NCBI GenBank assembly: GCA_964583885.1 | Contig: CAZOXR010000002.1 | Coordinates: 1-25,841 of the forward strand | Direction of reading: 5' to 3' | Origin: an uncultured Methanosarcinales archaeon | Lineage (GTDB): Archaea; Nanobdellota; Nanobdellia; Woesearchaeales; CAZOXR01 | Length of the DNA: 25,841 nucleotides | Shown: positions 4,011 to 25,806 of the stretch, in pieces | How the letters are laid out: each line of letters starts with the position of its first letter | How positions within the stretch are numbered: the first letter of the stretch is position 1 | The notes under the pieces: generated by a model | The model's input: the letters and a program-made list of their open reading frames with translations, nothing else | Database searches by the model: none | Told to the model about the DNA's origin: nothing | Program-made: the position numbers and the translations under genes

Positions 4011-5090
4011 TTATTTTTTCTTCTTGGCTTTACTTTTCCTACTTTTTTTGGATAATCTTCCAGTTAAGAACCCCAATAATAGACCTATGCTAAATAATAT
4101 TACTGCTTTTACTATTATCTCTTTATTTGTCTTTTTTTCTATGATGATGTGGGGCTTTTCTTTGAAATACATGTCTAGGTTGCTGAGTTCTAGAGCATAT
4201 TCCAGATAAAGCAAAGTAGAATATTTATCAGATTCTTTTAGTGAATCAGCATACTCATAGTAACTATAACCTAAAACAGGAAAGATGTCTTTTTTTTGCT
4301 GCTTAGCAAGATTTCTTTTTATTATCTTTAGTTTCTCTTCAATTAAAATATCAATCTGGTCTTCTCCAATACCAACAAGATTGAGTATGGAATCTGCTTC
4401 TGCTTTTGTTTTGCTTGCTTTAAACAGGCAAAGCTCATAATTGCTATTATAAAAATCTTCATAAGCCAGATTAAGCTCTTTTTTTATACTTTCAATATTT
4501 AGTATAGATAAATCAAGATATTGATATCTTTCTTCTGCTTCTGATAATTTGTCCTGGCAGGATTTTTTTAGAATTTCTTTATTCATGTTAAATTCTTTGC
4601 CTCTATGATCAAAGAACGCAAGCCAGAGGTATGCTGAATAGACCCTTTCTGCAGCATATACTAAATCATTAATATCTGTTTCATTTAAATTTTCTTCAGC
4701 TTTTTCAAGATAATCTTCAGCTTCTATAATCCTCTCCTTTACTATAACATATGCTTCAAGGTCAGTTATTGTTTTGATTTCTTTTCTGCTTATTGCCTTA
4801 TTCAATTCATCAATATTCCCTCTTGCTATCGAGATTCTTGTTTCTTTATTATTCTTTGATAAATTTTGAAGCATATTCAAAACATAGCTAAATTTTGTAT
4901 TTGCCCCAAAAAAATAGCTTGCAGAAGAATAATGTCTTTTTTCCTTGAATACTTCTTCTCCTTTTTTTGTAAGATTAATAGCTGTTTTTTCTATTTCTTT
5001 TAATTCTTCATTTTCTTCTTCTTTGATTAATGAAATACTTTTTTGCAATTTGTTGCTTCTTTTATAAAGATCAATTGCCAATTCCTTCAT
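4011..5090 (-). CDS. C-terminal part (helical region plus C-terminal TM anchor) of an interrupted Lon-like S16 surface protease
   Basis: In frame with 5118..5780: ...YSE*VIDQKYLETMKELA...; helical region, TM (IIVKAVILFSIGLLLGFLTG) and a Lys-rich stop-transfer tail. Confidence 0.75.
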   Translation of the reverse strand: MKELAIDLYKRSNKLQKSISLIKEEENEELKEIEKTAINLTKKGEEVFKEKRHYSSASYFFGANTKFSYVLNMLQNLSKNNKETRISIARGNIDELNKAISRKEIKTITDLEAYVIVKERIIEAEDYLEKAEENLNETDINDLVYAAERVYSAYLWLAFFDHRGKEFNMNKEILKKSCQDKLSEAEERYQYLDLSILNIESIKKELNLAYEDFYNSNYELCLFKASKTKAEADSILNLVGIGEDQIDILIEEKLKIIKRNLAKQQKKDIFPVLGYSYYEYADSLKESDKYSTLLYLEYALELSNLDMYFKEKPHIIIEKKTNKEIIVKAVILFSIGLLLGFLTGRLSKKSRKSKAKKKK

Positions 5091-5117
5091 TGTTTCTAAG
5101 TATTTTTGGTCTATTAC

Positions 5118-5780
5118 TTACTCGCTGTACTCCCTTTCTATTCTTTTTCCTGTGAACTCGTAAATAACGCTATTAAGGTTAGAAACTTCTTTTATTTCAA
5201 TTCCTAGCTCTTTTCCATACTCAAAGATATCTGTTTTATTTGTAGAGTTTGTTATATTTAAGAAATCCTCATCAGAAAACCTCTCTCCAATAGGTATAAG
5301 AACTTTTTTTATGTTTTGCTTTTTTGCAGCATCTATCTTAGCTTTTAAGCCGCCAATTGGCCCAACTAGGCCGCCAGAATTGATTGTTCCTGTTATTGTA
5401 ACATTTTCATCCAGAGCAATATCTTTTAACATTGCTATTGTTAATGCTGAGACTGCTGCTCCTGCTGATGGCCCTCCAATAATTGCTGATTCTGCTGTTA
5501 TTTTATAGATAAAATCAAAGTTATCACAGTTTATATCCAAATAATCACACGCAACCTGTTTTGCGAATCTTGTAGACATCTGTGTGTCTATTTTTGTCAG
5601 TGGAAAGATTTCAATAAAGACTCTGCCAGAACCAGGCTGTATTTCCAGATAAAGATCTGCAGGGCTTCCTTCATACACTCCATTTGCCTCTTTAACTGCC
5701 AATAGTTTTAGATGCCCTTGCTTTGCTGCTGCTAAAGGTATTATCAGCAATAAGATTATCAGCAGGATTGTTTTTTTCAT
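5118..5780 (-). CDS. Secreted Lon-type (MEROPS S16) protease domain without AAA+ module; N-terminal part of an interrupted ~589-codon gene
   Basis: Signal peptide MKKTILLIILLLIIPLAAA; GPSAG serine and GGLKAK lysine 43 residues apart, as in E. coli Lon S679/K722; TGTI...G.VGPIGG motif. Confidence 0.85.
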   Translation of the reverse strand: MKKTILLIILLLIIPLAAAKQGHLKLLAVKEANGVYEGSPADLYLEIQPGSGRVFIEIFPLTKIDTQMSTRFAKQVACDYLDINCDNFDFIYKITAESAIIGGPSAGAAVSALTIAMLKDIALDENVTITGTINSGGLVGPIGGLKAKIDAAKKQNIKKVLIPIGERFSDEDFLNITNSTNKTDIFEYGKELGIEIKEVSNLNSVIYEFTGKRIEREYSE

Positions 5781-5870: not shown

Positions 5871-6677
5871 CTATTTATTTATACCATCATCTTCTCTGAA
5901 ATTGCCTCTGTTTATCTCCTGTTTAGGTGTTTTTCCAAATAATCCTTTTAGCATGGTCTTAAGTCTTGGGTCTTTGTATTCTTCTCCGATTAAAGCAGCA
6001 GCCAGTTTTTTGTACTCAACAGTCGCATCCGATTGTTTATGTAAAGTACTTGGAATATTTTTTGATAATGCTTCTAAGATATTTACTTCATGAGGAAGAA
6101 CAGCCAAAACATTACAATCAGCAGCTTTTTCTATTTCATCTAAACTTAATTCAAAATTTTTGTTATATACTTTATTGAGAATTAAGCCTGTTATGTTTGT
6201 TTTTCTTTGCTTAGCCAGTTTAACAGCCCTTAGGGTTGTGCTTAATGTAACATGGTCTGGAGTTGTAACAACAAACAACTCATCACTTGCTATCATTGTT
6301 GCCAAAATTTCCTCATTTAATGTTGGCGAAGAGTCTATTAAGACAACATCATAGTCATCTTTTAATTGTTGTATTTTATATTTCAATCTATGAGGATTTA
6401 TCTTTTTATAGAGCAATGCTCCAGGCATTATGTGAAAACCATGTTCTGTTTCATAAATAGCTTCATTAGCATTGGCTCTGTTGTTTAAAACATGATGCAA
6501 AGTAACCTCAGGATTTACAAAACCCAAATGTAGGGCTAAGTTTGGAGCAGAAAAATTAGCGTCTATTAGTAAAACTTTTTGTTTGAATTCATTAGCTAAT
6601 GCAGCACCTAGCGCAGTTACAGTAGAAGTTTTTCCAACCCCTCCTTTTATAGAGATTATCCCAATAGTTTTTCCCAT
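5871..6677 (-). CDS. minD: MinD/ParA-family ATPase (MinD-like)
   Basis: Deviant Walker A KGGVGKT, LLIDANFSAPNL, VLIDSSP, VVTTPD, ILNKV; near-C-terminal amphipathic segment LKTMLKGLFGK resembling a membrane-targeting sequence. Confidence 0.85.
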   Translation of the reverse strand: MGKTIGIISIKGGVGKTSTVTALGAALANEFKQKVLLIDANFSAPNLALHLGFVNPEVTLHHVLNNRANANEAIYETEHGFHIMPGALLYKKINPHRLKYKIQQLKDDYDVVLIDSSPTLNEEILATMIASDELFVVTTPDHVTLSTTLRAVKLAKQRKTNITGLILNKVYNKNFELSLDEIEKAADCNVLAVLPHEVNILEALSKNIPSTLHKQSDATVEYKKLAAALIGEEYKDPRLKTMLKGLFGKTPKQEINRGNFREDDGINK

Positions 6678-6678
6678 T

Positions 6679-9600
6679 TTAAGCGTATACCTCCTTTAAT
6701 TTACTAACCAGGCCTTTATTATCATGGGCCCTTTCTATTCTTTTGGGATGCGCTTCTTCTATTACCTTAGTTGTTAATGGTTTATATTCTTTTCCTTTCT
6801 CCACTTCAATTTCTTTCTTTAATCTTTCTTCTTCATCCCTCTTTTTCTCATCTTCATTTCTTTTCTGTTCTTCGGTTATCTTAATCTCTTCCTGCTTTCT
6901 CTTTTCTTCTTCAAGCTCTTTCTTTAACTTCTCCTCTCTTGTTTTTCTCTCTCCCACTATTTTTCTTTCATCTTCTGCCTTTTTTTCATCTTGTTGTCTT
7001 CTTCTTAACTCCCCTGTTTTTCTCCTTTCTTCCTCAAGCTCTTTCTTCAAACTTTCTTCATCTGCTTTTCTCTTCTCTTCTTCAATTTTCTTGAGTTCTT
7101 CCTGTTTTCTCGATTCTTCCTCCTTCCTAATTTCTTCTTGTTTTGTCTTTTCTTCTTCAATTTCTTTCTTTAATCTCCCTTCCTCTAGTTTTCTTAACTC
7201 TTCCTGCTTTCTCTTTTCTTCTTCAAGCTCTTTCTTTAAATTCTCTTCTCTTGCTTTTATCTCTTCCTCCTGCTTTCTCTGTTCCTCTGCTTTTCTTTCT
7301 TCTTCTTGTTTTTTTCTTAGCTCCTCTGTTTTTCTTCTTTCTTCCTCAAGCTCTTTCTTTAAATTCTCTTCTCTTGCTTTTACCTCTTCTTCTTGCTTTC
7401 TCAGTTCTTCTAGCTTTTTCTTTTCTTCTTCCTGTTTCTTTAATTCCTCCTGTTTTCTCCTTTCATCTTCAAGTTCTTTCTTTAATCTTTCTTCTTCCTG
7501 TTTTCTTAATTCCTCTAGAGTTGTCTTCACTTCTTCAAGCTCTTCTTTCGCCCCTCTTTCCTCTACTTTTCTCTTTTCTTCCTCGAGTTTCTTAAGCTCT
7601 TCCAGCTTTATCAATTCCTCTCGTTTCTTCAACTCTTCCTGCTTTCTCCGTTCTTCTTGTTTCCTTTTTTCTTCTTCAACTTTCTTAAATTCCTCTTCTT
7701 TCCTTAATTCCTCTGCTTTTCTTCTGTCATCTTCACTCGTTCTCTCTTCTTTACCTCTTTTAACTACCACTTGTTTCCTTAAATCTTCTTGTTTCCTTAA
7801 TTCATCTTCAAGTTCTTTCTTCAATCTCTCTTCTTCATCTTCAATTTCATCCTCTTCAATTCTCTTAACCTCTACTTGCTTTCTCAGCTCTTCTGCCATT
7901 ATACTTCCTTTCTCGAGCCTCTTAAGCTCTTCCAGCTTTATCAATTCCTCTTGTTTCCTCAGCCTCTCTTGTTTTCTCCTTTCTTCCTCAAGTTCTTTCT
8001 TCAACATCTCTTCTCTTGCTTTTCTCTCTTCTTCCAGTTTTATCTGTTCTGTAAGCTTTCTCTTGTGTTTTTCAAGTTTCCTAAGTTCAATCTGTTTTAT
8101 CAATTCTTCTTCCTTCCTCAACTCTTCCTGCTTTCTCTTTTCTTCCTCAAGTTGCTTCTTCAATCTTTCTTCGTTATCCCTCTTTTTCTGTTCTTCAATT
8201 CTCGTACTCTCTTCACGTCTCTTCAATTCTTCTGCTTTTATTTCTTCTTCTTCGAATTTCTTACGTTCTTCTTGCCTCCTCAACTCTACTTGCACTTCTT
8301 TCTTTAGTCTTTCTTCATCCCTCCTTCTCTCTTTCTCTTCTCTTTTTCTTAGTTCTTCTGTTTTTCTTCTTTCTTTCTCAAGCTCTTTCTTCAGCTCTTC
8401 TTCTTCTGATTTTATGTACAATTCTTTTAATGTTTTAATACTAACATCTCTTTCTAATCTCTTTTTTGGCCTGAACTTATGAGTAATTTCTGTTTCTGGT
8501 TCACTCTCGTCTCTGCGTTTCTTTGTTTCGTGCACTAGGTAAGCAAAGATAGTTAACACAGATAATATTATTAGGATGATTGGCCAATAAGATGGAGCTT
8601 TTGGTGGTGCAGGCTTTTCTATTGAGATTTCTTCAATTATATTAAATCTGGCGCTGCCTATTGCAAATTTATCCTCGTAACGTATCTCAACAACAAATGT
8701 ATATTCACCAGACTCCAAATCTTTTGGAACAGAAATCTCTTTTACAAATTCTACTTTATCTTTAATTGCTATTGTTTCATCATCAGATACAACTATCTTT
8801 CCATCTAGGTCTTTAATAAGATAAGTTACCTTTGTATCTTTTTCTTTAGTACTTATCTCTCCAATATTGTATATACTTATCTCTGCTGCTAATGCACTTC
8901 CAGCTGGTATTTCCGTGTATCTTGGTAATATCTTAATTTTAACATCAAAAAGCGTTATCTCTTCTGGCACTTCTTCCTCTTCGATAACTATTGCTTTTAT
9001 TATTTTTTTACCTGGCCCTCCGCTTGGAGCAGGCGCTTCTTCTGGCGCTGCAGCACTTGTAAGTATTAAACTATCATAAGCTGTTGAGGGTGGTTGTGCT
9101 GAACCTGCATAACTACAACTTACCCAAGCAAGATATGTTCCTGTTGGGTGTGAACTTGGAACATCCATTGAGTATACTTTGGTTACATTTTCTTCTGGAT
9201 CTGTTTCTTGTGAATCTCTTTTTTGAGGTTCGCCAGTATCTCTTTGCTCATTTTTATCTGTATCGACCCAAACATCACAAGTTGATTCAACTTCAAAATC
9301 ACCTTCATCTATGATTGTTAAGGTACAACCTAAGCTAGAGCCAACATCACTTGAAGTAGGACAGTCTAATGTAACACTATATGGGCCGCCAGTTGCTACT
9401 CTGAACATAGCTGCTTTTGAAGCTTCCCTTCCACTGCTGTCATTTGCCCATAAATGTACTGAATATGCTCCTGTTGTAGGATCATCAGATAAGGATACTT
9501 CATCCCAAATATATACTCCGTCATTATTATCATCATTAAATCCAGTATTGTAACTAAACCATACTGCTCCATTTGGATATAATACTGTAAGATTATAACT

Positions 9601-15600: not shown

Positions 15601-17292
15601 AGAATCATATAATGTTCCAGTTGATGTTGTAAACACAACTGACAAGTTATTCTGCATAAAGTCATAAACTTCACTTAGTGTTCTTGTTTCATTAATCAGG
15701 ATACTTCCACCATAGCTATAGACAAAGGTAACATCAGAACCATTTTGGTTATCATTGAACCAAATTTCACCTGTGTCGTAGCTTATATTGAATTCACCAT
15801 TATCATCAGGCGCGCCTGTAACTTCTGTTAGTTTAGTTCCGTTTGTAGTATTATCCCAACCAAAGACAGCAAAGTATTCTGATTGTGTAATCGGATAATT
15901 GTCTATTGTACAATTATCTCCACAGTCAGACTTAATCTCGCTTCCGTAACTGACTTTTGTTGGAGCTGTGTACGTAATTCCAGTCTCATTTCCTGCGCCA
16001 ACAACGAATGCTGCAACTCCTAACTGGACTTCCTCAGATGTTTTTGCAGTTAAGATCTTAAGCGCTTCTGTGAATGATTTCTCAAAGTACCTTATGTATA
16101 ATGTAAATGGTCCTACGTCAGTAGAATTACTTAGGGTAGTTGCATTATAGGTAACAGATGTAAAGTTCTGAGTAACTATCTCGCCTTTTGGGCTGAGCTG
16201 AGTTATAACATCAAATACAGTATCTCCTGATTCATCAAGTAATTTAGCACTGACATTAGCTATGCCAACACCTGCAGTATCAGTTACCTTAAGATCATAT
16301 GTATATTTTCTATCAAAAGAGCCATTTTCAATCCCTATCCATGTAAAGTTCCATGTGGTTGAGTCAATATTTCTTATGCTGCCTCCAGCACCATCAGATG
16401 ACCATCCAAAGCCCTCCTTGAAGTTCAATGTCCTTGTGCTGGATTCTAAGATATCTCCACTCTGAGTTCCACTATCCCCTAAAATAATGTCAACATAAGA
16501 ATCATATAAACTTCCAGTTGTGGTTGTAAACACATCAGACAGGTTAGCCTGCATATAATCATATATATTTGACAAAGTCTTCTCTCCAGTAATCCTTATA
16601 GAGCCACCATAACTGTAAACAGCCCTTACTATAGCCGTTTCATAACCATCATCAAATGTAACATTGCCTGTTGCATAATCAATAGTATACTCACTGGATG
16701 GAATCTTTTTACCAGTTGAGTCATTGTACACATTAAAGAACTCTGATTGTGTAACAGGGATATTGTCCAATATAATGTGATCATCTGTACCAACTGTTTC
16801 ATTCTCTCTACTATCATAACTAACTTCAGTTGGAGCAGTATAATTAGTCCCATTCTGAATAGATGCATTTACTAAAGTTAAAACTGCAAATGCATTAGTA
16901 GATAGCTGTGTTTCTTCATCAGTCTTTGTACTTAACACCTTATATGCATCAACAAAACTCTTTCCGTAGGTCTTTATCTTCTGAGTAAATGGACCAATGT
17001 CAGTCATTGTGTTAGAATCAGAATACACATAAGTGCCATATGTAAATATCTGGCTAGGTATCTTACCAGAACCATTTGTAAGCTCATTGAATACAAGATC
17101 GCCATGCAAATCCTTAAGGTTAATAGTTACATTTCCAAGAGCAGTACCGCCAGTGTCAGTTACAGTCAGATCATATGTATACTTTCTAAAGAAAGTGTCA
17201 TTATCTGCTTTCCATGTAAACTGCCATGTATCTGATTCAACGTTTATTGTAGTGCCGTTAGCACCTCCAGCTGACCATCCAAAGCCACTATC
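6679..17292 (-). CDS. Giant multidomain surface protein lacking its own N-terminus: repeated ~295-aa modules, Ig/MG2-like domains, helical stalk, TM helix and ~600-aa cytoplasmic E/K/R coiled coil
   Basis: Frame is open from 17292 (after TGA 17293-17295) to TAA 6679. The track start 17109 is an internal TTG (same codon reads ...NLKDLHGD... in the second copy). No signal peptide; TM YWPIILIILSVLTIFAYLV at ~8530-8590; many N-x-S/T sequons. Confidence 0.85.
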   Translation of the reverse strand, partial: DSGFGWSAGGANGTTINVESDTWQFTWKADNDTFFRKYTYDLTVTDTGGTALGNVTINLKDLHGDLVFNELTNGSGKIPSQIFTYGTYVYSDSNTMTDIGPFTQKIKTYGKSFVDAYKVLSTKTDEETQLSTNAFAVLTLVNASIQNGTNYTAPTEVSYDSRENETVGTDDHIILDNIPVTQSEFFNVYNDSTGKKIPSSEYTIDYATGNVTFDDGYETAIVRAVYSYGGSIRITGEKTLSNIYDYMQANLSDVFTTTTGSLYDSYVDIILGDSGTQSGDILESSTRTLNFKEGFGWSSDGAGGSIRNIDSTTWNFTWIGIENGSFDRKYTYDLKVTDTAGVGIANVSAKLLDESGDTVFDVITQLSPKGEIVTQNFTSVTYNATTLSNSTDVGPFTLYIRYFEKSFTEALKILTAKTSEEVQLGVAAFVVGAGNETGITYTAPTKVSYGSEIKSDCGDNCTIDNYPITQSEYFAVFGWDNTTNGTKLTEVTGAPDDNGEFNISYDTGEIWFNDNQNGSDVTFVYSYGGSILINETRTLSEVYDFMQNNLSVVFTTSTGTLYDSYVDIILGDEENGTGILNESATRTVNFEDGFGWSAGGANGTTINVESDTWQFTWKADNDTFFRKYTYDLTVTDTGGTALGNVTINLKDLHGDLVFNELTNGSGKIPSQIFTYGTYVYSDSNTMTDIGPFTQKIKTYGKSFVDAYKVLSTKTDEETQLSTNAFAVLTLVNASIQNGTNYTAPTEVSYDSRENETVGTDDHIILDNIPVTQSEFFNVYNDSTGKKIPSGEYSVDYETGNVSFDDGYETAIVRAVYSYGGSILVTGNKTLSQIYDYMQANLSDVFTTGTGSIYTSYVDLILGIGSSNKTLIFDSQADWNVGTFSHTNTTPGGSVTLNMTGGEYASNGTFTSQIFDANSSADWKNVTWDNVSVPKTNVTFQLRSCYDVSCTGSVFVGPDNTNTTYFINNTGEDLSAIGNISDNQFFQFRAFLKTNDSDLTPQLLWVNVSYKKFQQVGRIKEPSAKTLNFEDGYGIGGTNTSSYSVNLQSSDWQFTWKGPTNGTFYQQYSFKLKVIDSAGNAIEDANVSLTDSAGNLVFSKLTNEGGNITEYEITYATYNYTNGSDATTFTPHVLSITKTSYVTSSGQVVVTSPQDLLYTLSTSCDPDSDYNYALLYPMTFNNVTEKITVWGSNGSDGHTAIGSNESDPITFEHIFQFGKAKYGSCAVTNPASGTYAVLVPLDIGNTTSELNTTYVKTSGQSVDFAKQVRMLPNARLISGLLSEDENPYSGSTLSFSGVDTWNVSEEGQLYLLNDSYLELYDSFLLHKLIVNESNYSMLYWWGDIIAKRSSFENWWTIRFLSDNNTLEDIVITNVGEGFYPAINQTGTLDTIKSRKTEEEGVYFAYGVDVNITDLTITETNGSHVRVLNYTGTANLLNPSLNWSNITWTTGSFSGTINRKYTYDLTTTDSAGSALPNVSIKIIDVKGDSLFDLKSDSDGEIPQQTLTRSIFDYTYKTGNDQGPHTLYLKKYGKSFQEIAKEFSAATVETTQLADNPFTTSDRTEVQAKNISGIVFNPPGVISYEDEVYTNFTKTGDLNNTPITQSEFFTVFGWDNVTNGTKLTLVTDTPDANGEYSINYETGRLTFFNNQSEQDTNVIPAYSYGGNITIVTGTASADCITMQDLYDFMQANLSDVLTTVDGTAYTSYVNLIIGNITTKGGCIKDSTKSLSFEDGYTYSFSSVGGYIDLLGTTSGSGSGGLPLNIFDDVGTQFNPGDMVRIFSTTVDSDGALVAADVTVTVYYPNETTLSTGSSTSISTGRFRYNFTLPSTVPTGTYRVDIDATYSDDEVYDNLAFKVEAASSGGGSTGGLPLNIFNTMGHSYQPGADVIISSTTVNSSGHLVNASVNITIKKPDGTTQVSSWSDLQSTGRFEYSFEAAASPQGTYTADISANYSGYEIHDTEAFIVSVNAGSGNASFPPRVHVEAPAVIEVNTPFNIVVLTTDEDGVVTDCSSNTSNITIRDTMNNTKVVDDQPMDKFGTGLYNYSYSTPKQSTYVAIAECTVSAVEYIGIKEFSTEDVSSSGGSGSSTGGLPLNLFSSVGPFYSPNDEIAVFATITNSSGVLVNATVNVSVFYPNSTTLNSSQATELALGRYKYNYTLPSSAPIGTYEVRIDANYSGSEMHDTLTFIVSSAIEDIKANLTQIIDAIDNTIIPYLQDINKTVNDSYNYLQNTIFPKVNDANSTISDVLNKWGTYNASTIYIKINDTYNDTRNLLTKWGTYNAELLYNVSNLTYTQTISIYNDMATASALANVQTNVTWLINNVATEENITTIISKIDIIDSNVSTLITRTDCSNPTNSVLCDYLNDINTTVDWLKDNVATQSNISDIQSNLTEIITRLTEINTTTQNSYDYLQNTIYTSLNETWNNTERILSYIGTPSDSESANTLFGEHAYTQNRIADIQVNLTDLKTIVTQINVTTFEINNTVSSILTTVNNLTDLHQCLADPNSTICSILNSIESTVDSLQLGVTIVDFEIDSLAAVSPRYASEEVQIEATFSYSNGSLASPASYNLTVLYPNGAVWFSYNTGFNDDNNDGVYIWDEVSLSDDPTTGAYSVHLWANDSSGREASKAAMFRVATGGPYSVTLDCPTSSDVGSSLGCTLTIIDEGDFEVESTCDVWVDTDKNEQRDTGEPQKRDSQETDPEENVTKVYSMDVPSSHPTGTYLAWVSCSYAGSAQPPSTAYDSLILTSAAAPEEAPAPSGGPGKKIIKAIVIEEEEVPEEITLFDVKIKILPRYTEIPAGSALAAEISIYNIGEISTKEKDTKVTYLIKDLDGKIVVSDDETIAIKDKVEFVKEISVPKDLESGEYTFVVEIRYEDKFAIGSARFNIIEEISIEKPAPPKAPSYWPIILIILSVLTIFAYLVHETKKRRDESEPETEITHKFRPKKRLERDVSIKTLKELYIKSEEEELKKELEKERRKTEELRKREEKERRRDEERLKKEVQVELRRQEERKKFEEEEIKAEELKRREESTRIEEQKKRDNEERLKKQLEEEKRKQEELRKEEELIKQIELRKLEKHKRKLTEQIKLEEERKAREEMLKKELEEERRKQERLRKQEELIKLEELKRLEKGSIMAEELRKQVEVKRIEEDEIEDEEERLKKELEDELRKQEDLRKQVVVKRGKEERTSEDDRRKAEELRKEEEFKKVEEEKRKQEERRKQEELKKREELIKLEELKKLEEEKRKVEERGAKEELEEVKTTLEELRKQEEERLKKELEDERRKQEELKKQEEEKKKLEELRKQEEEVKAREENLKKELEEERRKTEELRKKQEEERKAEEQRKQEEEIKAREENLKKELEEEKRKQEELRKLEEGRLKKEIEEEKTKQEEIRKEEESRKQEELKKIEEEKRKADEESLKKELEEERRKTGELRRRQQDEKKAEDERKIVGERKTREEKLKKELEEEKRKQEEIKITEEQKRNEDEKKRDEEERLKKEIEVEKGKEYKPLTTKVIEEAHPKRIERAHDNKGLVSKLKEVYA
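6689..6695 (-). promoter_or_regulatory. Shine-Dalgarno site for minD inside the 3' end of the giant gene
   Basis: AGGAGGT 11 nt upstream of the minD ATG; the giant-gene TAA (6679-6681) is 1 nt from that ATG. Confidence 0.7.
6790..8420 (-). repeat. Imperfect coding repeats in the E/K/R-rich cytoplasmic tail
   Basis: About 12 copies of an LKKELEEE(R/K)RKQEEL-like motif; a 41-aa duplication (123-nt offset, 7224 vs 7347); an exact 30-bp copy at 7591 and 7921. Confidence 0.85.
10453..10551. repeat. 21-bp exact direct repeat encoding KWGTYNA twice (78-nt period)
   Basis: AGCATTATAAGTTCCCCATTT at 10453..10473 and 10531..10551. Confidence 0.85.
14927..15516. repeat. 590-bp perfect direct repeat, copy 1
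   Basis: Base-for-base identical to 16697..17286 (offset 1770 nt = 590 codons); similarity continues with mismatches to about 14710/16480. Confidence 0.95.
16697..17286. repeat. 590-bp perfect direct repeat, copy 2
   Basis: Identical to 14927..15516; identity ends abruptly after AAAGCC (17286), followed by ACTATC here versus GTCCTC in copy 1. Confidence 0.95.
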
Positions 17293-20200
17293 TCAGAAGA
17301 ATTTGCCTGTGAATAATCAGTTCCATCTGAAGTTGTTATCTGGCACTTTACAACATCTTCTGCTGATGTCTCATCACTAACCAGAGTGAACTGGTCTTTT
17401 TGGTCAGAATATATAGCATATATCTGTGAAGCAGACAGGCTTCTGTTAAATACCCTCACTTCGTCTATTAAGCCATCAGCATCTCCTCCATGGTCATCTA
17501 TTCTTGACCCAATAACACAACTGACAGTAGCAGAAATAGCAGTATTGAAAGCATCATAAGTCACATTTTTATCTTTTGTGCCATTAAGATACATAACAAC
17601 ATCCTTGCCATTATCTAATGTAATAGCAACATGAGTCCATACATCTAAAGTGACATTTGACTTCCATTGGAATGCAGTTGCGCCCCATCTTTCAATGCCT
17701 AGTGTCTGGAATGTTCCTGCAGGACCTCCAGTAATAGAAAACATCTTGTAAGTATTTGTTGTGCCATAAGAGAACCAAGTATCATAGCCTCCCATTGCTC
17801 TTGGCTTCATCCAAAACATTATAGTTCTTGAACTGTTGCCTGTTGGAAGGTTTGATGTTCCGCAGTCTATATAGTCATTACTGCCATCAAAGTCATAAGC
17901 TCCAGAGCCATTAATGCCTCCTGTCTTGTTCCACGAAGAGCCATTTATCCATCCATGATTGTCTTCTCCGCTAAAATCATAGGTCCAGTTAGTAGAATTA
18001 TGCTTTGTATCAAAAGACATATGTAATTGTGTCATTGAGATATTGTTAATAAACCAGTTATAGCTGTTAAATAATGCATCATCATCTTCATCTGATTGTG
18101 TTGTATTGATGCATGTCAGATTAGCATAGGTCATATTCTTTGGGTGGGTTGTTGAGTTCAATTTTGGCGCAGAGATTGTTGGTGGCTCATTATAATCCAT
18201 AGTGACATTCAGAACATACTCGCTGAATAACTTATCTTTTGAAGTTAAGCTTACATTATACTGCACAAACCTTGCTTCTGGATTTGTTGAAGCCTGAATC
18301 CAATCAGTATACTTCAAAGCAGATGTTTCATAAAGTTCTTTTACTTCTGTTGTTGTCAAAGATTGGTTGAATACCATAACTTGGTCTATTGAACCGTTCC
18401 AATAACTTCCCACTGTATTTGGTCTTCTTCCAATACCTACATCTATAACTGCTCCAGGAATATCTCCACCAGCATTATTCTCACTATTAGTTTGTAGTCC
18501 GTCATAGTAAGTATAATAATCATCACCGTTTCTGACACCGCAATAATGATGCCATTCATCTGTTACAGGAGTTATTCTAAAACCAATATTTGCACCATTC
18601 CTATTAAAGTAAGCACAACCTACTGAAGAACACCTAATTATTTGTTCATTAAGTCCTGTACTACCATCTGTTTCTACAATGTTTCTTTCAGTTCCATCTA
18701 ATCCATTAGCATTCGCCCAAGCACAATGAGTATAGTTACTTGAACCTACAATTAAATTATTGCTGTCTGATACTAAAATCCAATCATTTACACCATCAAA
18801 ATCACACCCAGCATCAATGAAGCCTGTTGTGTTCTGGCAAGTTGCACCTAATATTTCCCCATGATTTTCGTAGCCTGAAGAATCTAAAACATGAGTTCCA
18901 TTAAAGTAAGCTGTTCCATTATCCATGCTCCAAAAGCCGGTTAAGTTCTCAAGATTAACATTAGAGCCATTATAGATTGGAGAATAGCTATCTGTTGCAT
19001 TGCCTTCTGAAACTCTTATTTTGGTTACTGTTGCGTTTGCAAAAGAATCATAGTCTGGATGTGTGCCATTTGTTGCATTAAACATCTCTGAAATCTCTGT
19101 TGCTGATAATGAATAATTAAAAATCATAGTTGAATCTATTGTCCCATTAAAACTTGAGCTGCCTCCTTCTGCACCAATCCATAAATTTCCAGTAATATCA
19201 TTTGAACTTAGATTTCCTCCTCCACTTCCCTCTAATACTCCATCAACCCAAATCTGTCTGCCTGTTCCATTCCAGATAAAAACAAGATGATACCATTGTT
19301 CTTTATCAAAAGCTCCTGCTGCACCTGCATATAACCAACCTGCATCAGTATCCCATATCCCTACTTGATCTGAATTATCATAACCCCATATTATTCTTGG
19401 TGTGTCTGAACTATATAATCCCAACATAGAATTGGATGAGCCTGATAGAGTAGGGTAAACCCATTGACTTATACTTATAGCGTCTCCATTAAAAACAGGT
19501 GAAGTTACAGTAATAGAATTACCACTACCCCCTTTAAAATTCATTCCATATTCCCCATTATGTGCATCGCTAGTAAATGTTGCACCAGTGATTGTTCCGT
19601 CATTACTATAAGTACTTTCATCATAAACTGTTGAGCCAGAACCTTCTTCAAATCTCCATAAGCCAAGAATAGAATCATTTACATTAAAGTCTCTTGAAGA
19701 GTTTAAAGAAACATTAAGGATCTTTCTGTTTGTGCCTATGTCTAATGGTTTTGCAACAGAGAACCATCCAGATGTAAGTGACTCATTTATTGTAACAGAG
19801 TAATCAGGTGGTGACTCACGCCAGTCTTTTCCAAAGTAAAGACCAGTATAGCCTGTTGTATTAGAGTCAATAACTTGTATTACTGTTGGATCAACAATAT
19901 AGTCAAACTCAACAGAATCACCAACAATCTCTAAATCAAATGTTGAATAACTGTCATTCAAAGCAGTTAAATAAACCTTATAATAAGATTCCGCTGATAT
20001 ATTATTGAATGTAGCTATTAACTCATTTCCTTGCTCAGTATAGACCGCTATACTAGAGCCTGAATCAGACCTTGCGTAAATTGTAATATCTTTAGAACTA
20101 TCAAGCGCTTCTTTGAAAGTAGCCCTTACATAATGTCCAGCAGGTATTGGCTCTGACCAATAGTCATCCTGCGCCTTCACATGTTCATAAATATCAGATA

Positions 20201-22073
20201 CAAAGTTTCTATCTGAATCCAGATGCTCTGCAGCGCTAATCTCAATAATTAGCTCATATGTCTGGCTGGATAGTGAAGGAACAACCCATTCAATATAGTC
20301 AATCAATGAGTTACCATTAGTGTCATAAGCATCAAAGCTGGCTACTTCTCTGCCAGAATCCTTTAGCCAGTAAAGTTTAATTTGTCCTTCTCTTGCTTCT
20401 GTTGGAAGTGAAGTATAGGCTAGAATGTTAGTATAATGCACTGAAGAGCTAATTACAACCTGTTTCCTGCTAGAACTGATTTCTTCTTCAACTGCTTCTG
20501 GAGCTGGTGTTTCATACTCTATTTCAACTTCATCTACTTCTTCTTCTATTATTAATTCAGTAGTATCTTGAGATGCAACTGTATCAACTACTGCAGAAGC
20601 AGTTATCAAATTATAAGTATCAACATAATTAACCCTGTTCTTTGTCTTTATTTTTGCTTCCTTTACTTTTTCCTTTACCCTCTTATAAACAAACTTGTTA
20701 ACAGAAACATTAGTTGCTTCTTTTGGTAAGATCACAGTAAGGTTGCTTGTTTTGTTTGCAAGCTTAACAATCTTCTTCCATTTGACTGGCTTGCCAATAA
20801 CAGCACTATACTGTATTACTTCTTCTTCAGAAACAGTGGCATTACTAACCTTAGCCAAACTTACAACTTCAAGCTCTTCTAAAACAGAGTAATCAACACT
20901 GTCAATCGCTAAAGTAGCATTAGAGACATTAAATATCAATGTATAGAATGTCTCATTGAACCCAGATAACAAACAAGTATCAACACAAACATCATTAAAG
21001 CTTATCCTATCATCAGAGAAAGTTGCATTCAAGCTTCCCCATTCTGAGTTATGTATATCTGAATAAGGGTTCTCCAAACTAGCATTATAATCAACATAAA
21101 GCACTTGAGAAGAAATAACATTATTAACAGAAGCTCCATGCTGGCTATACGCAGATAAAAAGTCTTCATCCCATTCCAAAGATGTAGGCATTAATCCAAT
21201 AAAGTTACAGCATGCCTCAGCACCATAACAAACAGTTGTTATCTCTTCATTATCAGCTGAATAAGTCTCCCATTTTGTACAAACCTTAGAAAAGTCAACA
21301 TTCCAGCTAAAGTCAGTATTCTCAACTGTAAAGTCAATTATACCATCACTTGCCTCAACACCATCATCATCTGGATCATATGCAGTACCAGAAGCATAGT
21401 CAAGATTAATTATTATATTTTTAGTGATATTTGTTTCATTTATTGGTATAGTTTCATTTATTATTGATATATTTTCTAATGGTTTTGTCTCATTGATTGT
21501 TTCGTTTATTGGTATTGTTTTATTGGTTTGATTTGTTTCATTGGTTATTTCACTAGTTTCATTTGAAACAGCCAATCCAGTTATGCCGGCAATCCATTCC
21601 CCTACTAGGGTATCACTATCAAACACAACATACTTAACGCCTTTATGCAGGACATAAACCTGCGCATAACCATCCTTGCTAATAGAACCACTTATTTTTA
21701 ATGATCTCAAATCACCAGGATTCTCTAAGAACCAAGCATGTTCAGAATTAGAATCAATTACTAAACCCAAATCCTGCGTATAATTGTTCTCAACAGTTAT
21801 CGTTGTATATCCTGTTAGTGCTGGCTTAAAGACAAAGAACCCTACAGCTAAGAATATAATAACTAACAAAGCTAGGGGTATCTTTAGATGCTGTTGGCTT
21901 CTTTCTTTGTTTTCATAAGAATCAAGGTCTTTTTGTGATTTAGAAATATGCTCATTACAAAAGTCAAGCTGATCATTTAACAGAACCATCTCTGCTAAAA
22001 TCTTTCTTTTTGTGGATAAACCTAACTGAATATCTTTCCTCAATTTGTCTCTTTTTTTATTTACTGAATGCAT
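17244..22073 (-). CDS. N-terminally membrane-anchored surface protein with three LamG/concanavalin-like domains; probably the N-terminal part of the giant gene
   Basis: TM IPLALLVIIFLAVGFFVF after a charged N-terminus. LamG signatures LGLWRFEEGSG...W.H.VFIW...IDSTMIFN.SLS, LTGFWSMD...FDGVNDWI...IDQVMVFN, and HMSFD...FDGSNDYID...IDEVRVFN. The last ~14 codons are an out-of-frame reading of repeat copy 2. Confidence 0.85.
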   Translation of the reverse strand: MHSVNKKRDKLRKDIQLGLSTKRKILAEMVLLNDQLDFCNEHISKSQKDLDSYENKERSQQHLKIPLALLVIIFLAVGFFVFKPALTGYTTITVENNYTQDLGLVIDSNSEHAWFLENPGDLRSLKISGSISKDGYAQVYVLHKGVKYVVFDSDTLVGEWIAGITGLAVSNETSEITNETNQTNKTIPINETINETKPLENISIINETIPINETNITKNIIINLDYASGTAYDPDDDGVEASDGIIDFTVENTDFSWNVDFSKVCTKWETYSADNEEITTVCYGAEACCNFIGLMPTSLEWDEDFLSAYSQHGASVNNVISSQVLYVDYNASLENPYSDIHNSEWGSLNATFSDDRISFNDVCVDTCLLSGFNETFYTLIFNVSNATLAIDSVDYSVLEELEVVSLAKVSNATVSEEEVIQYSAVIGKPVKWKKIVKLANKTSNLTVILPKEATNVSVNKFVYKRVKEKVKEAKIKTKNRVNYVDTYNLITASAVVDTVASQDTTELIIEEEVDEVEIEYETPAPEAVEEEISSSRKQVVISSSVHYTNILAYTSLPTEAREGQIKLYWLKDSGREVASFDAYDTNGNSLIDYIEWVVPSLSSQTYELIIEISAAEHLDSDRNFVSDIYEHVKAQDDYWSEPIPAGHYVRATFKEALDSSKDITIYARSDSGSSIAVYTEQGNELIATFNNISAESYYKVYLTALNDSYSTFDLEIVGDSVEFDYIVDPTVIQVIDSNTTGYTGLYFGKDWRESPPDYSVTINESLTSGWFSVAKPLDIGTNRKILNVSLNSSRDFNVNDSILGLWRFEEGSGSTVYDESTYSNDGTITGATFTSDAHNGEYGMNFKGGSGNSITVTSPVFNGDAISISQWVYPTLSGSSNSMLGLYSSDTPRIIWGYDNSDQVGIWDTDAGWLYAGAAGAFDKEQWYHLVFIWNGTGRQIWVDGVLEGSGGGNLSSNDITGNLWIGAEGGSSSFNGTIDSTMIFNYSLSATEISEMFNATNGTHPDYDSFANATVTKIRVSEGNATDSYSPIYNGSNVNLENLTGFWSMDNGTAYFNGTHVLDSSGYENHGEILGATCQNTTGFIDAGCDFDGVNDWILVSDSNNLIVGSSNYTHCAWANANGLDGTERNIVETDGSTGLNEQIIRCSSVGCAYFNRNGANIGFRITPVTDEWHHYCGVRNGDDYYTYYDGLQTNSENNAGGDIPGAVIDVGIGRRPNTVGSYWNGSIDQVMVFNQSLTTTEVKELYETSALKYTDWIQASTNPEARFVQYNVSLTSKDKLFSEYVLNVTMDYNEPPTISAPKLNSTTHPKNMTYANLTCINTTQSDEDDDALFNSYNWFINNISMTQLHMSFDTKHNSTNWTYDFSGEDNHGWINGSSWNKTGGINGSGAYDFDGSNDYIDCGTSNLPTGNSSRTIMFWMKPRAMGGYDTWFSYGTTNTYKMFSITGGPAGTFQTLGIERWGATAFQWKSNVTLDVWTHVAITLDNGKDVVMYLNGTKDKNVTYDAFNTAISATVSCVIGSRIDDHGGDADGLIDEVRVFNRSLSASQIYAIYSDQKDQFTLVSDETSAEDVVKCQITTSDGTDYSQANSSEIVALDGQLEVLTALQ

Positions 22074-24615: not shown

Positions 24616-25806
24616 TTATCCTTTTTTCCCAATTTCACCATATATTTCCTGTTCTGGATAAACCTCTATACCATCATCAGTTATCTGCATAGCAACTATC
24701 TTTTTTTGGTGTTTTGCTCCTCTAAGCTTTAATACCTCAATTGCGCTTTCCCTTATATTTCCTCTTTGTATGTTGTACAAAACAACTACACCATCTGCTA
24801 AAAACTCCTCTACACCTGATTCTGTTAGTTTAACAGGGATTTCAGTTGATTCTGTTATTAAAAATGAAGTGGCGCCTAATTCTTCAAAAAGCCTGAATAA
24901 CTGTTCAATGTATATTCTATAGGTCTCTTCTTTTCCAACAAATGCTGCTGCAATAGCAGATAAAGAATCCAGAATAACCCTGTCTGGCTTAAAATTGCCA
25001 GGAAATAAAACAGGTTTAACATCAATTAATAGCTCACCTTTTGCCTTTTCCAGCAAAGCTTCAACCTGCCTTGTTATAGCGAATGGGTCATATTTTTGGA
25101 TTACTAGTTTGCCCTCTCTTTCTAATTTGTCAGGATTCCAATTAAAATCACGCATATGCTCCTTTAATCTTGTTATCGATTCTTCAAATGTCATATAGAG
25201 GCATTTTTCTCCATTAATGGCACCATAGTTTAATGTTTGTAAACCAAATATTGTTTTTCCAGAACCAGGACCTCCGCAAAGTAATGTAGATGTACCTTTT
25301 GGGACTCCTTTTTCCAATAATTTATCAAAACCAGGAATTCCTATTTTCATCCACGTATTTTTTTTCTGCTTTTCTGGATGTTTGCTCTTTGTTATTATCT
25401 TTTTAATAACCTCTCTCTGTTCCTCAATCTGTTCTTCGTGCTCTTTTTTTGGCTGTTCAGCTATTTGTTGAACACTTTCAGTGTGTTCTTTTCGCTCCTC
25501 ACCCTCTTTTTCGACATCTTTTTTTGCGTGTTTAGTTGCCTTAATGACCCCTTTTATGAATCCCTGAATGCGCTTTTTTTGTTTCTTGATATGTTTTTTA
25601 TGCTCTTCCTTTTTTGGATGCTTTGCTTTTTTTATTATCTGCTTTTTTTCTTTCTTTGCTGGCTTCTTGTGCTTCTTGGTTTTTTTAACAATACCTTTTA
25701 AGAACTTACCAATAAAGTCTTTCTGCTTCTTTTTATGCTCTTTCTTTTTTGGATGTTTGGCTTTTTTTATGACGTGTTTTCTTTTTTTCTTTGTTTGTTT
25801 TTTATG
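24616..25806 (-). CDS. Single-domain KaiC-like (RecA superfamily) ATPase with a long Lys-rich N-terminal extension
   Basis: Walker A GGPGSGKT, MTFEE, Walker B VILDSLS, EEFLADGVV, EVLKLRG. The frame stays open 152 codons upstream of ATG 25350 to a TAA at 25807-25809 (...KHPEKQKKNTW-MKIGIPGFD); the same repeat continues beyond that TAA to the window edge. True start undetermined. Confidence 0.8.
   Translation of the reverse strand, partial: HKKQTKKKRKHVIKKAKHPKKKEHKKKQKDFIGKFLKGIVKKTKKHKKPAKKEKKQIIKKAKHPKKEEHKKHIKKQKKRIQGFIKGVIKATKHAKKDVEKEGEERKEHTESVQQIAEQPKKEHEEQIEEQREVIKKIITKSKHPEKQKKNTWMKIGIPGFDKLLEKGVPKGTSTLLCGGPGSGKTIFGLQTLNYGAINGEKCLYMTFEESITRLKEHMRDFNWNPDKLEREGKLVIQKYDPFAITRQVEALLEKAKGELLIDVKPVLFPGNFKPDRVILDSLSAIAAAFVGKEETYRIYIEQLFRLFEELGATSFLITESTEIPVKLTESGVEEFLADGVVVLYNIQRGNIRESAIEVLKLRGAKHQKKIVAMQITDDGIEVYPEQEIYGEIGKKG

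Follow-up and report, generated by a model that had tools for sequence, protein, structure and literature searches.

The window analysed here is the whole 25.8-kb contig CAZOXR010000002.1 (25,841 nucleotides, nt) of an 887-kb metagenome-assembled genome (MAG; G000) that is 59% complete. Its minus strand carries a giant gene coding a putative surface protein, followed directly by a gene coding a MinD-like ATPase. The giant protein ends with a short motif, LVSKLKEVY, which is a candidate peptide for docking to MinD. Contigs matching the window are found in marine and seawater metagenomes, and no RNA holder of the stretch is listed. The central features of the locus are the following (aa, amino acids; ORF, open reading frame; SD, Shine-Dalgarno sequence; TM, transmembrane).

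17244..22073, minus strand: amino-terminal ORF of 1609 aa, with a 62-aa predicted cytoplasmic head and a TM signal anchor (residues ~63-85)
6679..17292, minus strand: open frame of the giant ORF from stop to stop, 3537 codons, holding an ectodomain with ~295-aa repeat modules and three MG2 domains
6679..17109, minus strand: giant ORF of 3476 aa when read from its first TTG
8533..8589, minus strand: carboxyl-terminal TM helix YWPIILIILSVLTIFAYLV, residues 2841-2859 of P0001
6808..8412, minus strand: ER/K-type charged helical core of ~535 aa, with evidence from tandem repeats (Tandem Repeats Finder, TRF), charge pattern and an AlphaFold2 (AF2) model
6685..6711, minus strand: terminal motif LVSKLKEVY, candidate MinD-docking peptide, whose K-E-V codons double as the minD SD
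5871..6677, minus strand: minD-like gene, 268 aa, with signature lysine K11, Walker A K16 and Asn41
5931..5969, minus strand: amphipathic helix PRLKTMLKGLFGK resembling a membrane-targeting sequence, MinD residues 237-249

The giant ORF terminates with a TAA at 6681-6679 and, after a single base (6678), the minD ATG occupies 6677-6675. The minD SD, AAGGAGGT (6689-6696), is found 11 nt ahead of this ATG within the K-E-V codons of the giant gene. A stop one nucleotide from the minD start and an SD embedded in the upstream gene had been described in an earlier reading of the sequence alone (the sequence-only reading) and are confirmed here.

Orthologues of the ATPase were searched in 401 genomes of the same order (cut-off E <= 1e-55, 39-78% identity) and up to 14 kb upstream of each was fetched. 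An orthologue is present in 70 genomes which, to judge from the named MAGs, belong to Woese-, Pace- and Nanoarchaeota-type DPANN archaea. In 40 of the 70 loci a co-directional ORF ending within a few nucleotides of the minD ATG bears the motif Phi-Phi-x-x-L-K-E-V-Y/F/H (Phi, hydrophobic residue), usually preceded by Lys or Arg; 32 of these 40 score at least 19 bits. All five conserved hydrophobic residues, at i, i+1, i+4, i+7 and i+8, lie on the same face of a helix. Proteins carrying the motif range from 27-aa mini-ORFs, through small soluble or single-TM proteins, to polypeptides of at least 4,660 aa. In the fourteen carriers longer than 1,000 aa, a TM segment precedes a charged tail whose length varies from 74 to more than 1,100 residues, while several small ones have no TM segment at all (loci L096-L099, L101 and L107). 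A shared ectodomain architecture was sought among the carriers and rejected, as Pfam gives only assorted Ig-like domains and the ectodomains are unrelated or partly related. Motif-bearing loci are scattered through most clades of the MinD tree.

The motif is close to exclusive to this gene pairing. The only match of at least 16 bits in the genome of the window is the carboxyl terminus of the giant protein itself (22.2 bits; shuffled sequences give ~1 match of at least 14 bits), and a search of G000 for further copies returned none beyond it. Six-frame reading of 932 kb of loci gives 34 matches of at least 17 bits; 31 of them adjoin minD on its upstream side and two others fall within the same carriers. 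A 20-column profile run over the 401 whole genomes yields 30 matches with E <= 1e-3, of which 29 are adjacent to minD; the remaining one (G202) is at the amino terminus of an unrelated 199-aa ORF with no Walker-A gene beside it. Borderline profile matches (G202, G039, G371 and G071), internal or amino-terminal and with no adjoining Walker-A gene, were judged to be due to chance. The motif was not found beside more distant MinD relatives or paralogues of the named MAGs (<=44% identity). Comparison across the order thus shows a motif both conserved and specific to its place ahead of minD. At one locus (L057, genome G352) a giant ORF of at least 4,645 aa upstream of minD ends with LLKKLKGAYKI, and a separate mini-ORF of 22 codons (MIKTKELKKKKILNNLREVY..) provides a second, better copy of the motif at the minD start.

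The ATPase has the deviant Walker A sequence SIKGGVGKTS and matches the Pfam families AAA_31, CbiA and ParA. Residues K11, G12, G13, V14, G15, K16 and T17 are invariant across 31 aligned orthologues. The best NCBIfam model is minD_arch (TIGR01969), although the score of 176.8 bits is below the cut-off of 201.75; minD_bact gives 107.2 bits against a cut-off of 212.9. The best structural match is Pyrococcus furiosus MinD (PDB access code 1G3Q, E = 1.4e-32). Near the carboxyl terminus, an amphipathic segment of the pattern R-Phi-x-x-K-Phi-K-x-Phi-F-x-K can be made out in most of the 31 orthologues, five of which end directly after it, as bacterial MinD does; this helix may bind the membrane. The Walker A' sequence reads D39-A-N41 instead of the D-x-D kept by all five aligned MinD proteins of the PDB, with Asn at position 41 in 54 of 61 orthologues and Asp in 7. 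The E. coli MinD mutant D40A is unable to hydrolyse ATP (PMC6803595). Since most orthologues have Asn in place of the catalytic Asp, a slow ATPase acting as scaffold or clamp is likelier than an oscillator, and hydrolysis is probably slow. Besides Asn41, residue 147 (window ~6237-6239) also departs from the canonical MinD switch, being a Thr at the site aligned to E. coli D152, where P. furiosus MinD keeps Asp; E. coli D152 pairs with K11 in the monomer and is needed for stimulation by MinE.

MinE (PF03776) and MinC (PF03775) were not found in G000, whose sequence is 59% complete, in searches that detected the positive controls, and a second MinD or ParA was not found in the same available 59% of the genome.

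The interaction between motif and ATPase was modelled with two MinD subunits, two ATP molecules and the last 46 aa of the giant protein, using own alignments with 31 pairs. The complex scores 0.62, compared with 0.08 for the best of three controls. Among 80 solved complexes, 58 attain that level, compared with 2 among 110 mismatched pairs, a calibration that is only rough here because of the own alignments and the inclusion of ATP. Three runs share at least 72% of their contacts, with a predicted local distance difference test (pLDDT) of at least 50 for the partner, and the contacts of lowest error are those of the motif residues L, V, L, V and Y. The motif is placed between the two MinD subunits, in contact with residues 141-153, 177, 181 and 185 on the first and with residues 49-56, 88-89 and 207 on the second. 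These correspond to E. coli MinD residues 146-158 (helix 7) and 48-55 in an alignment with Pseudomonas MinD. Helix 7 is where the MinE contact helix and the RSGQ motif of MinC bind S148, D154 and I159, according to a review (PMC6803595). The model shows likeness to these complexes, not binding.

The arrangement that we consider moderately probable is that the giant protein's tail ends in a docking peptide for a membrane-bound ATP dimer of MinD, which would fasten the inner end of the surface protein to an assembly of MinD. The terminal helix would dock to the ATP-bound dimer of the MinD encoded downstream and occupy a groove to which one subunit contributes helix 7 and its counterpart the 49-56 loop, the same site that bacterial MinD offers to the MinE contact helix and to MinC; both the binding and its site are predictions of the complex model. 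MinD, in turn, would be held on the membrane through its carboxyl-terminal amphipathic helix and act as a slow scaffold or clamp, less likely as an oscillator. Attached in this way, the inner end of the giant protein may be clustered, patterned or partitioned by the MinD assembly. A more elaborate version, in which DPANN archaea of the Woese- and Pacearchaeota type would possess a new membrane system akin to a cytoskeleton, is rather doubtful: here a hydrolysis-impaired MinD scaffold on the membrane would capture a portable 'LKEVY' tag present on the inner ends of giant adhesins and on small adaptors, with the ER/K helix of this genome as a tether or ruler of ~70-80 nm, and organise an attachment zone from inside the cell.

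Several observations count against the docking of tail to MinD. In 30 of the 70 orthologue loci the motif is missing upstream, which means that the partner is encoded at another place in those genomes or that the pairing can be dispensed with. The pLDDT of the partner in the complex model is only 51-53, and because MinD-MinE (3R9J) and MinC-MinD (4V02) complexes are already solved, the predictor may owe part of the score to having met this site before. Co-variation favours docking, as the predicted contact positions are better conserved in motif-bearing than in motif-less orthologues, a difference matched by random position sets in 1 of 20,000 draws (0 of 20,000 for the helix-7 side), but the test is not corrected for the shared ancestry of the sequences. 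The replacement of the catalytic Asp by Asn41 undermines a positioning model driven by an ATP cycle, and the ATPase falls short of the minD_arch cut-off. The nearest relative, whose MinD is 77% identical, is devoid of a long ER/K tail. A frame break divides the giant gene in the MAG (see below), and this copy could be a pseudogene. Finally, the E-V codons of the motif are at the same time the minD SD, with GAG coding 26 of the 27 Glu and GTG 22 of the 31 Val, while genome-wide usage of these codons is 33% and 11%, respectively.

The strong bias to GAG and GTG implies that part of the conservation of the motif acts at the nucleotide level. This opens the possibility that the terminal residues exist only to provide the minD SD or a local RNA structure for translational coupling, with MinD unrelated to the protein that carries them. 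The GAGGTG core positioned 4-10 nt from the minD ATG in nearly all loci fits such an artefact, as do carriers that are unrelated proteins of all sizes. The codons outside the SD behave differently. The conserved Leu is coded by six different codons (TTA 9, CTT 7, CTA 4, CTG 4, CTC 4 and TTG 2), the two Phi positions by 7 and 11 codons, and the aromatic position varies between Tyr, Phe and His, so that these residues are kept as amino acids through synonymous codons. In all cases the upstream gene is read in the K-E-V frame, although its stop shifts between 0 and 11 codons beyond the motif. The carrier at L055 has an internal second copy, LLRQLQEVY, at residue 134, far from any SD, and the complex model, which passes its controls, relies on the hydrophobic face of the motif. 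The use of all six Leu codons indicates that the peptide itself is under selection; the many Phi codons, the variable aromatic residue, the constant frame and the internal copy lead to the same conclusion. Coupling as the sole reason for the motif is accordingly unlikely. Read from its codons, the motif DNA is selected both as SD and as peptide, a clear case of double selection on a ribosome-binding site and a peptide.

A functional peptide could still have a partner other than MinD. The motif may be a lipid-binding helix, a means of self-association or the tag of another factor, with MinD simply co-expressed. An amphipathic helix placed after Lys or Arg is indeed a trait of many lipid-binding helices. 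The distribution of the motif speaks against this explanation, as it is essentially confined to loci of the MinD clade, is not present in the 331 genomes lacking that clade and does not occur beside the more distant paralogues. The predicted contact positions of MinD also track the presence of the motif, and replacing MinD by an unrelated protein in the model drops the complex score to 0.08. This alternative is very unlikely in comparison with docking to MinD.

The third possibility is a role in biogenesis. MinD belongs to the SIMIBI class, like Get3/ArsA and FlhG, and might capture the last-made end of very large membrane proteins, assist their insertion, folding or turnover and then be released. 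Tight translational coupling would lead to synthesis of MinD beside the finished carboxyl terminus, most carriers are membrane proteins with a TM segment preceding the tail, and a gene for a secreted Lon-like protease follows minD in the window and is found nearby in genome G116. On the other hand, several small carriers have no TM segment, the site predicted by modelling is the effector groove of MinD rather than a groove for binding TM segments, and the genes downstream of minD are not conserved. We therefore regard a biogenesis factor as highly improbable, and docking of the peptide to a MinD assembly as the reading to be preferred.

The tail that precedes the docking peptide is unusual in composition. 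It comprises 617 aa after the TM helix (8532..6682), with 32% E, 20% K, 13% R and 10% L, and its probable layout is a juxtamembrane stretch of ~40 aa, an ER/K-type helix of ~535 aa with two predicted hinges, and the short amphipathic helix at the end, preceded by basic residues (..NKG-LV-SK-L-KE-VY). The TM helix is the sole segment of the giant ORF exceeding 1.6 on the Kyte-Doolittle scale (19-residue window, peak 2.32). A KKRR cluster follows it directly on the carboxyl-terminal side, and the N-x-S/T sequons of the giant ORF are split into 129 ahead of the TM segment and none behind it. Because of this cluster and this split, the tail most probably faces the cytoplasm.

Residues of opposite charge are strongly enriched at i+3 (z = 13.5) and i+4 (z = 10.7) relative to composition-preserving shuffles, and those of like charge are depleted at i+3/i+4 (z = -11.5). 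E, K and R add up to 65% of the tail, and its 535-aa core has no Pro and six Gly. Hydrophobic residues account for 16.6% of the tail and have no periodicity of 3.5 or 3.67 residues exceeding that of shuffles. The strongest periodicities, 3.15 and 5.15, have powers of 1.08 and 0.92, compared with a mean of 0.79 and a maximum of 1.55 in shuffles. A heptad or hendecad coiled coil was rejected on the basis of this analysis, and the tail looks like an ER/K single alpha-helix (SAH). The AF2 model made from the single sequence has helices of 217, 227 and 49 aa split by two short breaks and a final short helix spanning the last ten residues, with a mean pLDDT of 72. The predicted template modelling score (pTM) is 0.27, and the two ~220-aa helices may or may not pack as a hairpin. 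When fully extended the ER/K core would measure up to ~80 nm. The DNA of the tail features tandem repeats of 66, 123 and 312 nt at 67-83% identity (TRF), which points to growth of the tail by tandem duplication.

SAH domains of the ER/K type are known from myosin VI, myosin X and caldesmon. The tail of the giant protein resembles them by its richness in E, K and R, the opposite charges at i+3/i+4, the lack of a hydrophobic seam and the long predicted helix. It is unlike them in its length of ~535 residues, in its position as the tail of an archaeal membrane protein and in its recent tandem repeats, its monomeric helicity being a prediction only. It would be an unusually long prokaryotic example of an ER/K helix. 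Elsewhere in the same genome, contig C49 codes on its minus strand for a 589-aa ORF with 220 residues of ER/K SAH-like sequence and no LKEVY motif.

Among the 40 motif carriers the ER/K-like stretch extends over 562 residues in the window protein and over 191, 125 and 43 residues in three others, while the rest have none. The ER/K tail was rejected as a conserved feature, as an SAH-like stretch is present in only 3 of the 39 other carriers; it appears to be a lineage-specific spacer outside the conserved system. The sequence-only reading had seen a TM helix followed by some 617 aa made mostly of E, K and R, as found here. Of the two structures that it proposed for this region, the single alpha-helix agrees with the charge pattern whereas the coiled coil does not survive. 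It had also proposed a trans-envelope filament with an inner rod positioned or clustered by MinD, for example a polar host-attachment organelle of an episymbiont, which is a conjecture. The rod turns out to be nearly unique to this genome, being missing even in the nearest relative, and it is the terminal peptide rather than the E/K rod that docks in the model. A link of the tail to MinD is nonetheless likely and gains from more than adjacency, namely from a conserved and nearly exclusive motif and a docked model, although the prevalence of Asn41 opposes a fast gradient-forming cycle. The adjacency itself, which was to be surveyed in relatives, is kept in about half of the orthologues.

The giant gene is most likely longer than its open frame. 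The stop of the 1609-aa ORF overlaps this frame by 49 nt in a different reading frame. Its ectodomain is rich in sequons, with three Laminin_G_3 (LamG-type) domains, and pieces of it are homologous to amino-terminal regions of the motif-bearing giants at L064, L070 and L025, each a single polypeptide ending beside minD. Since these relatives hold both parts in single polypeptides, ORFs 17244-22073 and 6679-17292 are most likely one gene of ~5,100 aa. Its product would resemble a glycoprotein of the cell surface, with a TM helix as anchor at either end. The junction across the frame break (17244-17292) is reproduced without insertion or deletion in Logan contigs from four marine or seawater runs, which come from two studies and are possibly the source samples. 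In public contigs of two runs, position 17188 is joined back to 16400 (789 nt), an alternative joint induced by repeats that fits a variable copy number, or an assembly ambiguity, of the ~295-aa ectodomain module.

Systems that combine an ATPase of the ParA/MinD type with a partner bearing a peptide are already known. Such ATPases use cargo adaptors whose short terminal peptide links the cargo to the ATPase dimer, as found in the amino terminus of ParB, McdB, PomX, FliM/FliY with FlhG, and TadZ/CpaE. The window pair shares with them the side-by-side coding of ATPase and partner and a short basic or amphipathic terminal peptide, one that is conserved and specific to its pairing with the ATPase gene (40 of 70 loci; 29 of 30 strong genome-wide matches). 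It differs in that the putative cargo is the tail of a giant surface glycoprotein, that the same peptide is found on many unrelated small proteins, and that the peptide is carboxyl-terminal and encoded over the SD of the ATPase gene. These traits, together with the DPANN clade, are what is new.

Relative to bacterial MinD in complex with MinE (3R9J) or MinC (4V02), the window protein has the same deviant Walker A sequence and signature lysine, and a carboxyl-terminal amphipathic helix that may likewise target the membrane. The partner would likewise offer a short helix to helix 7 at the interface of the ATP dimer, here as predicted. Unlike in the bacterial Min system, neither MinE nor MinC was found in the 59% complete genome, the peptide is unlike MinE in sequence and terminates proteins of the membrane or surface, most orthologues have Asn instead of the catalytic Asp, and no link to cell division is implied for the window MinD.

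The best sequence matches are archaeal MinD proteins from Pyrococcus and Archaeoglobus (1G3Q, 1ION and 1HYQ) and MinD4 and MinD2 of Haloferax volcanii. MinD4 and MinD2 influence the placement of archaella and chemosensory arrays and cell shape, not division (PMC11588486; bioRxiv 10.1101/2020.04.03.021790). MinD homologues have been reported only in Euryarchaeota, and HVO_0596 is discussed solely as a predicted partner (PMC11588486). The window protein differs from known archaeal MinD by its DPANN clade and its score under the minD_arch cut-off, and from haloarchaeal MinD4 and MinD2 by its pairing with a candidate cargo peptide, none being described for the haloarchaeal proteins. A literature search returned nothing relevant on a partner of DPANN MinD, on a link between giant proteins and MinD or on long prokaryotic SAH domains; the Dip oscillator preprint concerns an unrelated GTPase (PMC13228585). 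Work on the functions of archaeal MinD is confined to Haloferax, where no cargo-binding peptide is described. If the docking is true, the peptide would be a first candidate partner for an archaeal MinD, concrete and testable. It would also suggest how genome-reduced DPANN cells that depend on host contact organise huge surface proteins from the cytoplasmic side.

Two ORFs follow minD in the window:

5118-5780, minus strand: secreted Lon_C (S16) protease-like ORF with a signal peptide and a GPSAG motif
4011-5090, minus strand: helical ORF of 359 aa with a carboxyl-terminal TM segment, in the same frame as the Lon_C ORF

They are separated by a single stop and nine codons, and one ORF of 574 aa near minD in genome G116 (locus L104) matches both. 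The pair at 4011-5780 gives the impression of a single gene, split or read through, for an extracellular protease anchored in the membrane. A universal downstream neighbour of minD was sought by clustering the genes of the 70 loci and rejected, the largest cluster (~330-360 aa) being present in seven loci. A KaiC-like ATPase is encoded at 24616-25350 on the minus strand of the window, and relatives 62-75% identical to it are found within a few kb of minD in 7 of the 69 other loci (L022, L023, L058, L064, L073, L100 and L110). KaiC-type signalling genes may thus be recurrent neighbours of the pair formed by MinD and the surface protein.

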